This document shows, in pieces, positions 37,059-46,555 of a DNA stretch of 64,000 bases. Each line of letters opens with the position of its first letter. Position 1 is the first letter of the stretch. This stretch comes from Candidatus Hermodarchaeota archaeon (GTDB lineage: Archaea > Asgardarchaeota > Lokiarchaeia > Sigyniarchaeales > SOKP01), in assembly GCA_048885925.1 (NCBI GenBank), contig JBHLLG010000008.1:22207-86206 (forward strand). The letters run 5' to 3'. The notes under the pieces were generated by a model, which was not told the origin of the DNA, did not search any database, and saw only the letters and a list, made by a program, of their open reading frames with translations. The position numbers and the translations under genes are program-made.

Positions 37059-37631
37059 ATGGCTCCAAATGAACGTGATGATAAAGAAGAGTTAGAAGAG
37101 TCAGATCAAAAGTTTGATAATGATTCAGAAGAAGATCTAGATTCGGATGAACAACCAGAAACTGATTTAGAGGATGAATTGAAAGAAGAATTAGAAGAAA
37201 AGGATATAGATACTGAATCAGAGTTAGATCGACTACGATTCAAGTATAGGGGTTATACCTTAGAGGAACTAAGAAAAATGAATATGGACCAATTTATACA
37301 GCTATTACCAGCAAGAGCAAGACGTTCTCTGAAGCGTGGATTACCACCGAGACAAAAGAAGCTTCTTGAAAGGTTAAGAAGAGCATATAGAGCAAAGAAA
37401 AGAGGAAAAGATTTGCTCACTCGAACCCATGTAAGGGATATGATAATATTTCCTGAAATGGTTGGTTTAAAAATTGGAGTATACAATGGAAAAGAATATG
37501 TTACAGTTGATATTAAGCCAGATATGATAGCTCATTATCTAGGAGAATTTTCTCTCACAAGAAAAAGAGTTCAACATGGATCTCCTGGGATTGGAGCCAC
37601 AAGAAGTTCCAAATATGTTCCATTGAAATAA
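37059..37631 (+). CDS. rpsS: 30S ribosomal protein uS19 with acidic N-terminal extension
   Basis: [32 protein letters not shown]-like [19 protein letters not shown]. Confidence 0.97.
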
Positions 37632-39000: not shown

Positions 39001-39198
39001 ATGGATATAATAACGGCTGAAAAAATTCGAGAAATGGATGATCGAGAAAGACAAAGAGTTTTAGTTAGTTTAAGAGAGGAATTAATGATGCTTTATTCAA
39101 TGCAAACAGGTGGCGGACTTTCTGACAATCCTGCAAAAGCTAAATTATTACGTAAACAAATAGCAAGAATATTAACTGTTATGAATGAAGAAAGATGA
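39001..39198 (+). CDS. rpmC: 50S ribosomal protein uL29
   Basis: IREMD..ER...LREEL...NPAKAKLLRKQIARILTV. Confidence 0.93.
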   Translation: MDIITAEKIREMDDRERQRVLVSLREELMMLYSMQTGGGLSDNPAKAKLLRKQIARILTVMNEER

Positions 39199-39512
39199 TG
39201 ATCGATCCTAAATATTTAATATATCATGACCTCATAGGTTTTGATACTTATGCTAAACCCTTATCAATGTCTTTAAGTACGAAATTCGTGAATATCGGTG
39301 TTGTAATTGATGAAACACGAAATATGTTAATTACTGAGAAGGATAATAAAATTAAGCGCTATATTAAGAAGAATTATATTTTTAGGTTTAAAATACCAAA
39401 TTATGAAGATAATGAAGAGGATTATTATTTAGAAGTTAACGGAATCAGGATTATTGGACTTCCTATAAATAGATTGAGAAGCCTAAAGAAGAAGAGGTGG
39501 TTAAAAAAATGA
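39195..39512 (+). CDS. rnp1: Ribonuclease P protein subunit Rpp29/POP4
   Basis: HDLIG, GVVIDETRNML, FRF, VNG..I.G.P..RL; canonical position between uL29 and uS17. Confidence 0.88.
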   Translation: MMIDPKYLIYHDLIGFDTYAKPLSMSLSTKFVNIGVVIDETRNMLITEKDNKIKRYIKKNYIFRFKIPNYEDNEEDYYLEVNGIRIIGLPINRLRSLKKKRWLKK

Positions 39513-42116: not shown

Positions 42117-42134
42117 AGATTAAGGTGAAAAAAG

Positions 42135-42284
42135 ATACCACAAGGTAAACATTATGGGAAGGGAGTACGCGAATGTAGGCGTTGCCATACTCATAGAGGC
42201 GTAATCCGGCGATATGGACTATATATTTGTAGAAGATGTTTCTATGAAATTGGTAAAGATATTGGATTTAAAAGATTTGAATAA
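42135..42284 (+). CDS. rpsN: 30S ribosomal protein uS14 (zinc type), apparent ATA start; missing from ORF track
   Basis: Manual translation (I/M)[48 protein letters not shown]; in-frame TGA at 42126 upstream; AGGTGA 42123-42128. Confidence 0.93.
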
Positions 42285-42319
42285 GTATTAATAAAAAATA
42301 TAGAAAAAGGTGAAAAGAT

Positions 42320-42703
42320 ACGACAAATACAATAGCAGATGCATGTTGTGCTCTTAAAAATGCAGAAAGAGCACGTAAAAAAGAAGTAATAATTAGCCCT
42401 GCTTCTAAAATTCTACAACAGATATTTAGAATCTTTCAAAAACATGCCTATATCGGAGAATTCGAAAGATATGATGATGGACGTCAAGGAAAATTTAAAA
42501 TTGCTTTATTAGGAAAGATAAATGAATGTGCGGGTTTATTAAAGCTGAACTACAAGGTTACGCAATTTGAAATGTTAGAAAGAAAATTATTACCTGCACC
42601 TGGTTTAGGTATAATTATATTCACAACTAATCAAGGTATAATGACAATGAGAGAAGCAGAAGAAAAGGGAATAGGTGGAAATACTTTGTGTTATATCTAT
42701 TAA
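42320..42703 (+). CDS. rpsH: 30S ribosomal protein uS8, apparent ACG start; missing from ORF track
   Basis: Manual translation (T/M)TNTIADACCALKNAERARKKEVIISPASK...YIGEFERYDDGRQGKF...LPAPGLGIIIFTTNQGIM..EAEEKGIGGNTLCYIY* (127 aa); in-frame TGA at 42311; AGGTGA 42308-42313. Confidence 0.93.
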   Translation, partial: TTNTIADACCALKNAERARKKEVIISPASKILQQIFRIFQKHAYIGEFERYDDGRQGKFKIALLGKINECAGLLKLNYKVTQFEMLERKLLPAPGLGIIIFTTNQGIMTMREAEEKGIGGNTLCYIY

Positions 42704-42726
42704 TTCAACCATGAGGTAAACATAAA

Positions 42727-43305
42727 ATGGTAAAAATTGCGTTCTTTAAGGAAGAATTAGAAATCCCTAAGGGTGTTGAAGTTAAATTGGAAGGTGGGCA
42801 TCATATTAGGGTGAAAGGCCCAAAAGGAGATATTTTAAAAGACTTTTCTCACGTAAGAGGGATAAAAGTCTCTATTGAAGGAAATAAAATTATTTTTTCG
42901 ACAAATTTCCCTAAGGGTGCAACTTTAGCTTTAATTAAAACAGTTGTTAGTATTATCAATAATTTAATTATTGGGGTTCAAACCAATTATAAATATGTCT
43001 CGAAAATCTGTTATTCACATTTTCCATGTAATTGTGAAGTGAAACCAGATAAACAAATGATTCAAATTGTAAATTTCTTAGGGGAAAAAGCACCAAGGAA
43101 AGCAAATTATCCAGAAAATGTGAAAGTGGAGATACAGGGAGATGATATATATTTTATTGGACCCGATAAAGAATCATTAGGACAAGCAGCCGCTAATGTT
43201 CAAAAAGCATGTCGTATCCGTAAAAAGGATCCACGAGTTTTTCAAGATGGAGTTTATCTATATAAAAGAATGCTTGGAGATGAAATCCTCTGGGAAATAA
43301 AGTGA
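42727..43305 (+). CDS. rplF: 50S ribosomal protein uL6
   Basis: VKGPKG, YSHFP, NFLGEKAPR, KDPRVFQDGVY. Confidence 0.96.
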   Translation: MVKIAFFKEELEIPKGVEVKLEGGHHIRVKGPKGDILKDFSHVRGIKVSIEGNKIIFSTNFPKGATLALIKTVVSIINNLIIGVQTNYKYVSKICYSHFPCNCEVKPDKQMIQIVNFLGEKAPRKANYPENVKVEIQGDDIYFIGPDKESLGQAAANVQKACRIRKKDPRVFQDGVYLYKRMLGDEILWEIK

Positions 43306-43315
43306 GGGAAGTATC

Positions 43316-43807
43316 ATGGAAAAAAAAAGATTGTTAAAAATAAGAAAGGAAATAAGTAAGAAAAGACCTTCATTTAGGAGAGTAGAATCCTGGAGATATA
43401 AAAGAGTAAAAGATTCATGGAGAAAACCTATTGGGATTGATTCAGCAACTCGAAAAAAAGAAAAATCTGGGGTTAAATCGCCTACAGTTGGTTATAGAGG
43501 CCCTAAAAAAGTAAGAGGGATACATCCATCTGGATATGAAGAAGTGAGAATTACTAATTTAAAAGATTTATCTAATTTAAATAAAAAAAAGCATGCTATA
43601 AAAATTTCAGCTAGATTAGGTGCTAAAAAGCGTATTGCGGTTATTGATTACTGCCAAAAAAGAGGTTTTAAAATATTGAACCTAGGAATTTCACAAAAAG
43701 AACTTGAACGGTTAGAAACAATAGTAAAAGCACCAATTTCTGATGAGGAAAGTGAGGAATTTCTTGATGTTGATAATTTAGAAGATTCTCTTGATTTAGA
43801 GGACTGA
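43316..43807 (+). CDS. rpl32e: 50S ribosomal protein eL32 with acidic C-terminal tail
   Basis: KRPSFRR, WRKPIGIDS, GYRGPKKVRGIHPSG. Confidence 0.95.
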   Translation: MEKKRLLKIRKEISKKRPSFRRVESWRYKRVKDSWRKPIGIDSATRKKEKSGVKSPTVGYRGPKKVRGIHPSGYEEVRITNLKDLSNLNKKKHAIKISARLGAKKRIAVIDYCQKRGFKILNLGISQKELERLETIVKAPISDEESEEFLDVDNLEDSLDLED

Positions 43808-43835
43808 GTTTAGAAATCAAAAGAGGAGATAATAA

Positions 43836-44297
43836 ATGAATTTAAAACCACAAAGAAGGATGGCTGCAGAAATTCTTAAATGTGGAGAAAATCGAGTTTA
43901 TTTCGATCCATACTTAATAGAAGATATTTCTTTAGCAATTACAAGAGAAGATGTTCGCAATTTAATAAAACAAGGGGTAATTCAAAAAAAATACAAAGAA
44001 GGAATTTCAAAATATAGAAAAAACCTAACCCATGAAAGGAAGAAAAAGGGAAGAGCGAGAGGATTAGGAAAAAGAAAAGGTAAAAAGTATGCTAGAACAC
44101 CAAAGAAAAGAGCATGGATAAGAAAAATTCGCCCAATTAGAAAAGAATTGAAAAAACTTAGAGATCGAAAGTTAATTACAGCAACTAATTATCGGAAATT
44201 ATATAAAAATGCTAAAGGTGGAATGTTTCATAGTGTTGCACAATTGAATAGGTATATTAAGGAAAAAGATTTAATTAGGAGAGGGAGAGGTCGCTAA
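43836..44297 (+). CDS. rpl19e: 50S ribosomal protein eL19
   Basis: QRRMAAEILKCGENRV, AITREDVR, AKGGMF. Confidence 0.96.
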   Translation: MNLKPQRRMAAEILKCGENRVYFDPYLIEDISLAITREDVRNLIKQGVIQKKYKEGISKYRKNLTHERKKKGRARGLGKRKGKKYARTPKKRAWIRKIRPIRKELKKLRDRKLITATNYRKLYKNAKGGMFHSVAQLNRYIKEKDLIRRGRGR

Positions 44298-44299
44298 AA

Positions 44300-44893
44300 A
44301 TGGCAAAAGGTCCAAGATATAGAAGATCTTTTCGAAGAAGACATGATGGTAAAACTAATTACCAAAAAAGATCAAAATTACTAAAATCAAGAAGAATAAG
44401 ATTAGTGCTAAGAGCTTCAAATAATCATATGAGAGTTCAAGTTATTCAATCTAAATTAGGAGGAGATAAGGTTTTAGTTTCTGCCTTTTCTAAGGAATTA
44501 ACCTCAAAATATGGTTGGACTGCTAATACTGGTAATATTCCAGCAGCTTATTTAACTGGTTATTTAGCTGGATTAAGGGCAAAAGCTAAAAAAATAAATG
44601 AAGCTATCTTTGATTTAAGCATATTTTATCACAAAAATCGAGTACTTGCTGGATGTAAAGGATTAATAGATGCAGGTCTCAATATTCCTTATCGTGAAGA
44701 ATTTTTTCCAGAAGGATTAAATGATAGAATCAAAGGTGCTCATATTGAAGATTATGCCAAAACTTTAAAATCAAATGAACCAGAAAAATATGAAAAAATA
44801 TTTTCCAGTTATATAAATATTAAAAAAATTAATCCATTGAAGTTTGGTCAAATTTTTTCAAATTCATTAAAAATTATTGAGACTAAAGCTTAA
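44300..44893 (+). CDS. rplR: 50S ribosomal protein uL18
   Basis: GPRYR..FRRR..GKTNY, NIPAAYLTGYLAG. Confidence 0.96.
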   Translation: MAKGPRYRRSFRRRHDGKTNYQKRSKLLKSRRIRLVLRASNNHMRVQVIQSKLGGDKVLVSAFSKELTSKYGWTANTGNIPAAYLTGYLAGLRAKAKKINEAIFDLSIFYHKNRVLAGCKGLIDAGLNIPYREEFFPEGLNDRIKGAHIEDYAKTLKSNEPEKYEKIFSSYINIKKINPLKFGQIFSNSLKIIETKA

Positions 44894-44907
44894 GAACGTG
44901 ATATAAA

Positions 44908-45522
44908 ATGAGTCGTTTAAGAAGTATTGATGAAGAATGGGTCCCAAAAACAAAATTAGGTGAACTTGTTCAACAGGGCCTTATGACATTGGAAAAGATA
45001 TTTCAAAACAATTTAGTTGTAAAGGAAAAAGAAATTGTAGATGTTCTATTACCACAATTACGTGAAGATGTTATATCTATAAAAATGATCCAAAAGATGA
45101 GCGCTAGTGGGCAAAGAAGTAGATTTAAGGCAGTAGTAATTATAGGCGCTGATGGTTTCCTTGGTGTTGGAGCATCTAAAAGTAAAGAGGTTGGACCTGC
45201 TATTAGGAAAGCAATTGACAAGGCTAAACTTTCTGTTATTCCAATTCTTAGAGGATGTGGAAGTAAAGAATGTGGGTGTGGGGGTACTCATAGTATTCCT
45301 TTTAAAGTTCAAGGTAAATGCGGTTCAGTTAAAATCAAATTAATCCCGGCTCCTGCTGGTGTTGGATTAGCATGTGCAGACAAAGTAAAACAAGTGCTAA
45401 AACTATGCGGCATTGAAGATATATGGAGCAAAACCTATGGTGATACAAGAACAAGTGAAAATCTTGTAAAGGCAACTATTGATGCTCTCAAGCATGCACA
45501 TAAATATAACTTTAATTTATGA
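44908..45522 (+). CDS. rpsE: 30S ribosomal protein uS5
   Basis: WVPKTKLG, GQRSRFKAVV, HSIPFKVQGKCGSV, PAPAGVGL. Confidence 0.96.
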   Translation: MSRLRSIDEEWVPKTKLGELVQQGLMTLEKIFQNNLVVKEKEIVDVLLPQLREDVISIKMIQKMSASGQRSRFKAVVIIGADGFLGVGASKSKEVGPAIRKAIDKAKLSVIPILRGCGSKECGCGGTHSIPFKVQGKCGSVKIKLIPAPAGVGLACADKVKQVLKLCGIEDIWSKTYGDTRTSENLVKATIDALKHAHKYNFNL

Positions 45523-45539
45523 AAAAGAGTGGTGTTTAA

Positions 45540-46064
45540 ATGGCTATGGCAAAAAAAAACCCAAAGGTAAAGGAGTCAGAATTTCAACCAAAGCTTTATT
45601 TTGCAATTCGAATAAGGGGCGCTCCTGGGATGAAAGGTAAAATATCAGATACGTTGAAGATGCTTAAAATGCATAAAGTAAATCATGGTGTACTTATATG
45701 GGGTATTCCTTCATATAAAGGCATGTTAGTAAAATGTAAAGATTATATTGCTTATGGAGAAATTGATGAAAAAACATTAATCAGATTACTAAGAGTGAGA
45801 GGAAAAGTCGAAGGTAATCATACTCTAACAGAAGAACATATTAAAAATTTAACTAATTATAAAAATTTTAGAGAATTAGCTAAAGCCCTATTGAACGGTG
45901 AAATTCAGTATCGTGAAAAAGATATATATAAAATTAAACCAGTTTTTCGATTACATCCCCCCAGAAAAGGACATCGAGGGACATTAAAGAAACATTTCAA
46001 TGAGGGAGGAACACTGGGTCATGTTGGAATTTATATAAATGAATTAATTCACAAAATGTTATAA
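45540..46064 (+). CDS. rpmD: 50S ribosomal protein uL30
   Basis: FAIRIRG, DYIAYGE, FRLHPPRKG, INELIHKML. Confidence 0.95.
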   Translation: MAMAKKNPKVKESEFQPKLYFAIRIRGAPGMKGKISDTLKMLKMHKVNHGVLIWGIPSYKGMLVKCKDYIAYGEIDEKTLIRLLRVRGKVEGNHTLTEEHIKNLTNYKNFRELAKALLNGEIQYREKDIYKIKPVFRLHPPRKGHRGTLKKHFNEGGTLGHVGIYINELIHKML

Positions 46065-46075
46065 TAATAAGGTGA

Positions 46076-46555
46076 GTGATAATTACAAGAAAATTTCCTA
46101 AGAAAGTCCGAAAAATGCGAGGCAGTCGTACACATGGCTATGGTAGAGTAGGTCAACATAGAAAAACGGGACAAAGAGCTGGAAGAGGAAAAACTACTCA
46201 ATGGAAAAAAAGCATGTATAGTTATTATTTAAAGCAGAAAGAACTTGGATTTCCTGATCCTGATTGGGATTTGGGAAAAAAAGGCTTTAAAAGACCTCAA
46301 GATATTAACAGAATCTATCAAGTTAATACTATAAATATTAAAGATTTAGACCATAAAATCGAGAAATTTGTTATCAATAAAAGAGCAACTAAATCTGGAA
46401 ATAAATATAACATTAATTTGAATGAGCTTAACATTCAGAAATTATTAGGTAGAGGAGAAGCCAATAAAGCGATTAATGTTATTGTTAATAAAGCTTCTAA
46501 AAAAGCAATTGAAAAAATTGAAGCTGCTGGTGGTAAAATTACTTTATTAACTTAA
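46076..46555 (+). CDS. rplO: 50S ribosomal protein uL15 (start GTG 46076 or, by SD spacing, ATT 46082)
   Basis: RKMRGSRTHGYG, GKKGF, KLLGRG, ASKKAIEKIEAAGG. Confidence 0.95.
   Translation: MIITRKFPKKVRKMRGSRTHGYGRVGQHRKTGQRAGRGKTTQWKKSMYSYYLKQKELGFPDPDWDLGKKGFKRPQDINRIYQVNTINIKDLDHKIEKFVINKRATKSGNKYNINLNELNIQKLLGRGEANKAINVIVNKASKKAIEKIEAAGGKITLLT

Follow-up and report, generated by a model that had tools for sequence, protein, structure and literature searches.

At which codon does translation begin in a ribosomal-protein gene that is intact over its full length and shows no ATG, GTG or TTG at the head of its conserved N-terminus? The question is raised by the ribosomal-protein cluster of a Candidatus Hermodarchaeota archaeon (Asgardarchaeota; Lokiarchaeia), which lies in a 64,000-nt stretch of DNA (contig JBHLLG010000008.1 of GenBank assembly GCA_048885925.1, positions 22,207 to 86,206 of the forward strand), referred to here as the window. 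A preliminary description of the window had singled out three genes, uS14, uS8 and uL15, and had assigned them ATA, ACG and probably ATT as start codons, each 6 nt behind the Shine-Dalgarno (SD) motif AAGGTGA. All of these positions were confirmed in the window sequence (Table 1). The window belongs to contig C8 of a metagenome-assembled genome (MAG) of 3.9 Mb, 181 contigs and 29% G+C, here called G000, and its ribosomal-protein cluster was compared with those of 23 other species of the genus (g1) and of 16 genomes from other families of the order. Throughout, AUH denotes ATT, ATA or ATC, canonical denotes ATG, GTG or TTG, and the spacer is the number of nucleotides between the SD core and the codon. 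The gene and genome sequences suggest, with a probability that we put at roughly 85%, that ATT, ATA and ATC, and occasionally ACG, are genuine near-cognate starts positioned by the SD in a lineage with relaxed start-codon stringency. The pattern is genome-wide and reaches several genera of the family.

Start codons of uS14, uL15 and uS8

At the head of uS14, the TGA contained in the SD is followed in frame by two sense codons and then by ATA. The whole uS14 open reading frame (ORF) has no in-frame ATG, GTG or TTG, which is why the gene is absent from the ORF listing of the window. Results of the comparison showed that none of the 21 genus genomes with the gene in this stretch starts it at ATG; the codon is ATA in 10, ATT in 9 and ATC in 2 (tblastn matches beginning past query residue 6 were left out). 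GGTGA precedes it in all 21, with a spacer of 6 nt in 18 genomes, 7 in two and 5 in one. The uS14 proteins of other families have a longer N-terminus and an ATG start. Readthrough, a uL5-uS14 fusion and an altered genetic code were rejected as explanations, as both a TAA and a TGA stand between uL5 and uS14; moreover, the uS8, uL15, GTPase and uS10 matches in 40 genomes contained no internal stops and hence gave no sign of a code change.

Public annotation holds near-identical 49-residue proteins, called by NCBI and IMG as 30S ribosomal protein S14, with PF00253 precomputed, in a protein cluster of 74 members. One of the NCBI proteins maps exactly to its genome with ATT as codon 1. The earlier expectation that gene callers drop such genes thus holds for the ORF listing of the window and fails for this NCBI uS14. 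Another public uS14, P0002 from an NCBI MAG, carries a 10-residue N-terminal extension from an upstream ATG, followed by the conserved IPQGK; its source genome lacks the in-frame stop ahead of uS14. The extension is probably a start mis-call arising from the same ATA start.

For uL15, ATT is the most likely start. It is invariant in 17 of 24 genus genomes, the other seven having an ATG one codon downstream, and its position is that of the ATG that opens M-T-R-(N/K)-F in other families. No canonical alternative exists in twelve of the 17 ATT genomes; in the rest, an ATG lies just upstream (two genomes), the SD's own GTG is in frame (two) or a GTG adjoins the SD (G000). The 11 residues that follow the ATT are conserved and their codons differ mostly by synonymous changes, which indicates that this stretch is translated. 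The head of the gene in G000 holds three other in-frame codons, GTG at 46076, ATA at 46079 (spacer 3) and ATG at 46115. The GTG is unlikely to be the start, because it adjoins the SD and because the codons between SD and ATT vary among species while the ATT does not. It is unlikely also because a strain variant breaks its frame: in a contig of run X3, at about half the local depth, a 1-nt deletion at 46078 shortens the SD-to-ATT spacer from 6 to 5 nt and throws the GTG out of frame. The ATG at 46115 was rejected, since the 11 residues before it are conserved and homologous to the N-terminus of ATG-started outgroup proteins.

The uS8 gene presents a different picture. Its first in-frame canonical codon is the ATG at 42572, which is codon 85. 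ACG stands at the start position in G000 only (1 of 23 genus genomes), with ATG in 18 and TTG in 4, and the relatives listed have weaker SDs, for example (A/T/C)GTGA, TTGA or ATGA. What chiefly makes the uS8 ACG credible is the recurrence of ACG behind GGTGA-N6 in another gene, that of a GTPase described below. It had been held earlier that ATG starts in all relatives would mark the three codons as errors of this one genome. For uS14 and uL15 the relatives speak otherwise, AUH being conserved, whereas the uS8 ACG is indeed unique.

The earlier proposal to check the raw reads at the three sites was followed with assembled contigs (Logan) from runs X1, X3, X5 and X12. Among the differences listed for the X1, X3 and X5 contigs, which come from three studies, none falls on 42135-37, 42320-22 or 46082-84; the X12 contigs have no cover at 42184-42354. 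This agreement lends weak support to the three codons. A search for RNA runs covering the stretch gave none.

Table 1 Features discussed in the text. Unprefixed positions are those of the window; the others are on contigs of the same genome.
Feature	Location	Strand	Remarks
uS14 SD, AAGGTGA	42122..42128	+	TGA (42126-42128) in frame with the ORF
uS14 start codon, ATA	42135..42137	+	6-nt spacer after AAGGTGA
uS14 ORF	42135..42284	+	49 codons plus stop; S14/S29 type, zinc-ribbon cysteines
uS8 SD, AAGGTGA	42307..42313	+	TGA in frame
uS8 putative start codon, ACG	42320..42322	+	6-nt spacer after AAGGTGA
uS8 ORF	42320..42703	+	127 codons plus stop
uL15 SD, AAGGTGA	46069..46075	+	same motif as in uS14 and uS8
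uL15 most likely start codon, ATT	46082..46084	+	6-nt spacer
uL15 ORF from ATT	46082..46555	+	157 codons plus stop
aIF1/SUI1	C24:8650-8973	+	outside the window; loci L065-L075, L260-L269, L300-L313
Initiator tRNA	C24:31211-31314	-	A1:U72, GGG/CCC anticodon stem, anticodon CAU
RagA/Gtr1-like GTPase	C86:9894-10802	-	loci L195-L219; start codon varies

SD strength and the extent of the pattern

In the preliminary description, strong SDs compensating for weak codons were taken to argue against three independent errors. We tallied SDs and starts for 15 genes of the cluster across the genus, excluding uS3, Rpp29, uS17 and eL32 because their extrapolated first codon is not the start in most genomes. 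GGTGA was present 4-8 nt upstream of 38 of 39 AUH/ACG starts, in comparison with 4 of 24 GTG/TTG starts and 1 of 232 ATG starts. Together with the conservation of AUH across the genus, these counts uphold the argument. The SDs and starts given earlier for neighbouring genes (GTGA-6-ATG for uL29 and uS5, GTTGA-6-TTG for uL22, GGTGA-5-GTG for uL14) were found as stated on re-inspection. Strength and codon also change together within single genes. The start of eL19 is ATG in 20 of 24 genus genomes, GTG in one, TTG in one and ATA in two, and in both ATA-started genomes the SD is strengthened to GGAGGTGA; in eL19, uS8 and the GTPase alike, the switch to ATA, ACG or ATT coincides with a stronger SD.

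The scan for SD-N6-near-cognate codons that had been suggested earlier was then run on the genome. The tally covered 3920 stop-to-stop ORFs of at least 100 codons and counted codons 5-6 nt after GGTGA within the first 15 codons. There were 50 AUH codons (ATT 30, ATA 16, ATC 4) and 2 ACG, next to 46 canonical codons (ATG 25, TTG 16, GTG 5), whereas the compositionally similar controls AAT, TAT, TTA and TTT came to 6 in sum. At spacers of 9-10 nt, AUH fell to 9, and the enrichment at 5-6 nt is significant (Fisher p = 5e-10). For spacers of 4 to 8 nt, the AUH counts were 7, 19, 31, 8 and 2, a sharp peak at 5-6, whereas the ATG counts were flat (15, 12, 13, 10 and 14). Such a sharp peak is expected if a weak codon requires exact placement in the P site. 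AUG is still the commonest start overall in G000.

In 67 ORFs of at least 60 codons, an AUH or ACG behind GGTGA-N5/6 lies near the upstream stop, and the next canonical codon is, at the median, codon 24. In the spacer-6 class, 44 ORFs have an in-frame TGA two codons upstream of the start. We also compared the positions of Pfam domains with the candidate starts. In all 20 AUH/ACG proteins of this test the domain starts at residues 2-25, before the next canonical codon, with a margin of only 1-2 codons for four of the 20. The proteins were uS10, Spt4, two RagA/Arf-like GTPases, an SDR, IMPDH, an aldehyde:ferredoxin oxidoreductase, two hydrolases, HIT, rubrerythrin, a flavin reductase, DUF134, an MGMT-type DNA-binding protein, a BadF-type ATPase, a GFO oxidoreductase, a response regulator, a phosphodiesterase, an ABC ATPase and a TFB.

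Two genes outside the window were followed across genomes. The uS10 gene has ATA after tGGTGA-N6 in all 23 genus genomes and ATA or ATT in all six genomes of the sister genera g50, g51 and g53, with GTG, TTG or ATG in other genera of the family and canonical codons in other families. Downstream of the AUH most changes are synonymous, whereas the 6 nt of the spacer are free to vary, which indicates that coding constraint starts at the AUH. The RagA/Gtr1-like GTPase gene is one in which the homologous start codon itself varies: over 19 genus genomes it is ATG in 7, TTG in 6, ACG in 2, ATA in 2, ATT in 1 and GTG in 1. ACG occurs in three genomes in all, G000 and G006 of the genus and G028 of another family. 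GGTGA-N6 accompanies the ACG in each of these three genomes, as well as the ATT and one of the two ATAs, and the ATG cases have a weak AGGA-type site.

The lineage effect was estimated from codons behind any GTGA-N5/6. The ratio of AUH to canonical codons was 91:156 in the whole G000 genome and 7:18 in 400 kb of G006, from the same genus; it was 10:69 in two 400-kb samples from another family (G031 and G037). The ratio of TTG to ATG was 38:109 in G000 and 5:60 in those two outgroups, so that G000 differs from them in both respects (p = 4e-5 for AUH:canonical, p = 0.003 for TTG:ATG). The earlier idea of a scheme in ribosomal-protein genes is therefore borne out in uS14 and uL15 and fails as one specific to ribosomal proteins, since the pattern is genome-wide and found in several genera of the family.

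aIF1, initiator tRNA and the weighing of explanations

The preliminary description had noted that no aIF1/SUI1 gene lies between uL29 and Rpp29. This is correct, and the gene is on another contig, C24. We found aIF1 in G000 and in 21 of the 23 other genus genomes; the start counts do not include the G004 and G020 loci, and one genus locus is masked. In G000 the gene is headed by two in-frame stops, two codons and then ATT, and there is no ATG, GTG or TTG until codon 89. All 20 readable genus genomes keep this ATT, which lies before the zinc knuckle, and keep the GGTTGTGA in front of it unchanged. ATT is also present in all 10 main-copy loci of g12 and g14, two of three sister genera sampled, and GGTTGTGA is kept in g14 as well. 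In the remainder of the order, 7 loci begin with TTG or GTG (one of them with ATG or TTG), 2 with ATA and 3 with ATG. Among 36 loci from other families of the phylum, 23 have ATG and 7 GTG. The remaining 6 lack a canonical codon ahead of the zinc knuckle; the candidate start is an ATA 9 nt behind AGGAGG in three of them and a CTG in the other three. A second, diverged copy of aIF1 occurs in some genomes of the family (L313 in G083, L309 in G115); it is preceded by GGAGGTGA or GAGGTGA, and a GTG in the SD or an ATA/ATT 8 nt on are its candidate starts.

A single initiator-type tRNA was found in G000. It is interrupted directly 3' of the anticodon loop by a 25-nt intron, and the Rfam tRNA model (RF00005) missed this tRNA in the whole-genome search. 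ARAGORN gave 12 tRNAs without introns and 30 with introns allowed, and RF00005 gave 23.

These observations suggest how near-cognate initiation might work. The strong SD, with its GGTGA core, would pair with the 3' end of the 16S rRNA and thereby set the codon 5-6 nt downstream in the P site, where the ordinary CAU initiator tRNA would be accepted with two of three base pairs. The tolerance of the lineage would follow from relaxed start-codon proofreading. The synthesis of aIF1 from its own conserved ATT may then create negative feedback of the infC/IF3 kind, less aIF1 allowing more initiation on its own mRNA. The ATT of aIF1 thereby bears on the earlier idea that such starts may sense initiation fidelity; a tuning of ribosomal-protein output by them would likewise be conjectural. 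A further step, which we regard as conceivable though rather doubtful, is that the ATT, ATA, ATC and ACG codons behind GGTGA-N5-6 form an aIF1-sensitive regulon that couples ribosome production to initiation fidelity. Its members might then, equally tentatively, include uS10, uS14, uL15, Spt4, a TFB and small GTPases. Weak or non-canonical aIF1 starts (ATT, ATA, CTG, GTG and TTG) recur across the phylum, and on the same doubtful reading self-limiting control of eIF1/aIF1 by a poor start would predate eukaryotes.

Several points weigh against SD-positioned near-cognate initiation. The starts are predicted here from genes and genome comparison, and the species behind the conservation counts share ancestry and are statistically non-independent. 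In the spacer-5 class, the GTG inside GGTGA is in frame and constitutes a formal alternative start. The uS8 ACG has the narrow distribution given above. The ATT of aIF1 in G000 is 9 nt after GTGA, beyond the 5-6 nt optimum. Inspection of fidelity residues in aIF1, as proposed earlier, was carried out on a protein alignment of the genus and outgroups and gave only conservative lineage-specific changes, none tied to fidelity and none that obviously explains relaxed stringency. The tRNA set of G000 is incomplete, so a second, unusual initiator tRNA is possible. A search of the MAG with two short motifs conserved in 16S rRNA did not find this gene, and for this reason the anti-SD sequence is assumed rather than read. 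Finally, the outgroup samples are small, at 400 kb each, and G031 holds a few plausible ATT starts, which suggests that the trait is graded rather than all-or-none.

Four other explanations were also weighed. Sequencing or assembly errors, or decaying pseudogenes, with ATG as the true start, might be suspected from the uS8 ACG seen in one of 23 genomes and from a source MAG in 181 contigs. However, each gene has its AUH start in 17-23 genomes that were assembled independently, its reading frame is intact, and variation in the first codons after AUH is mostly synonymous. For ATT, ATA and ATC, errors are already refuted. As to ACG, contigs of three studies cover 42320 with no difference among those listed, and the codon recurs in three genomes at the GTPase gene. 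We therefore consider errors extremely improbable. RNA editing could restore AUG from ACG by a C-to-U change in the mRNA, and it has a precedent in plant organelles, where ACG-to-AUG editing creates start codons. It would leave ATT, ATA and ATC unexplained, which are about 25 times commoner than ACG in G000, and the ACG sites carry the same GGTGA-N6 as AUH and swap with ATA, ATT, TTG and ATG at one homologous codon. Because of this shared context and interchange, one common mechanism for ACG and AUH fits, and editing appears very improbable.

Termination-reinitiation is a rival of another kind, in which ribosomes from an upstream gene restart at a nearby weak codon and non-AUG starts are a by-product of operon coupling. 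Reinitiation coupling has been described in archaea, and uS14, uS8 and uL15 lie inside a compact operon whose gaps measure 18-35 nt. Yet an upstream ORF of at least 80 codons ending at most 60 nt away precedes only 18 of 67 AUH/ACG starts, whereas canonical GGTGA starts have one in 23 of 54 cases; among the 18, the TGA of the SD never serves as the stop of the upstream gene, and uS10 and aIF1 are preceded by AT-rich intergenic DNA. Coupled starts being fewer among AUH/ACG than among canonical starts, translational coupling was rejected as the main cause, and this explanation is quite improbable. A dedicated initiator tRNA, or a modified C34 in the initiator tRNA, might instead read AUH cognately, like the mitochondrial tRNA-Met with f5C34. 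The set ATT, ATA and ATC, with a third base other than G, would suit a modified or inosine-like wobble base, and the tRNA inventory of the MAG is incomplete. Nevertheless, the sole initiator-type tRNA found has CAU, AUG keeps its place as the commonest start, and ACG together with the abundant TTG starts suits general near-cognate tolerance better than third-position wobble. A special tRNA is accordingly improbable, if less so than the other three.

Known systems and annotation

The rare start codons that NCBI table 11 admits for bacteria and archaea (ATT, ATC, ATA and CTG) resemble the present case in the codons, the dependence on an SD and the ordinary initiator tRNA. The difference is one of scale, as here about half of the GGTGA-led starts are AUH and these are fixed genus-wide in essential genes. 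ACG, which table 11 does not list as a start, recurs here, and the ORF lister used does not count it as one. In mitochondria, genes starting with AUA, AUU or AUC are read with a changed code and a modified tRNA-Met, and there is no SD; the three start codons are the same, whereas the AUH codons described here are tied to a strong SD at fixed spacing.

The aIF1 start is comparable to that of bacterial infC, the gene of IF3, in that a fidelity-factor gene starts at ATT, here conserved in the genus and two sister genera. A review (PMC4705826) places IF3 and aIF1 at similar sites on the small subunit and describes the AUU of infC and the poor context of eIF1 as autoregulatory. It also reports that aIF1 rejects AUU in vitro in Sulfolobus, an AUU mRNA being bound by 30S complexes of S. 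solfataricus only if aIF1 is missing. Like infC, the ATT-started aIF1 gene begins on a codon that its own product would reject, the rejection of AUU being taken from the Sulfolobus literature. The aIF1 fold is unrelated to that of IF3, and in the infC case weak codons are found in one or two genes, whereas dozens more are found here, three ribosomal-protein genes among them. The ATT-started aIF1 would thus be the archaeal counterpart of the infC AUU start and of the poor start context of eIF1. If this is true, feedback on a fidelity factor would be a principle common to all three domains.

In the literature we found no prior systematic description of such starts, apart from a single-gene remark on ATT. 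A 2020 review of archaeal initiation (PMC7531240) names, in its passages on start codons, only AUG, GUG and UUG. In work on P. abyssi, the strong-SD model mRNA has a 5-nt spacer after the same core. The remark on ATT is in a 2026 paper on Asgard tubulins (PMC13394414), which notes one 'rare ATT start codon' in the Lokiarchaeial tubulin gene AtubA, which its authors inferred because the N-terminal fold was truncated and a ribosome-binding site lay at a plausible distance. Our inference follows the same logic; the AtubA passage concerns one gene, calls the codon rare, uses it for cloning and gives no analysis across the genome or between species. Belinky, Rogozin and Koonin (2017; PMC5622118) describe, for prokaryotes, compensating nearby changes that accompany weaker starts. 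Their treatment covers AUG, GUG and UUG; here AUH and ACG are compensated too, almost without exception in one operon. Public annotation has preceded the literature in this respect, as NCBI and IMG already call the 49-residue uS14.

If a gene finder admits only ATG, GTG and TTG, some 60-90 genes in each genome of this group would be missed or truncated. Essential ribosomal proteins, Spt4, a TFB, aIF1 and eukaryote-like small GTPases are among those at risk of misannotation, which bears on reconstructions of eukaryotic signature proteins from Asgard MAGs; PMC13394414 points to a tubulin whose truncated N-terminus had already entered the literature on this account. The group would also provide a natural case of a strong SD, at fixed spacing, largely taking the place of the third start-codon base pair, in an archaeon that uses eukaryotic-type initiation factors (aIF1/eIF1, aIF2/eIF2).

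Two further observations concern neighbouring genes of the cluster. The uS19 protein (37059-37631) has 190 residues, of which about 60 form an Asp- and Glu-rich extension at the N-terminus; the beginning of this extension, MAP(N/D)E..., is conserved across the genus. The gene of the RNase P subunit Rpp29 (39195-39512) overlaps the end of uL29 (39001-39198) by 4 nt, and the second of its two ATGs is the likely start, because the first is not conserved in relatives.

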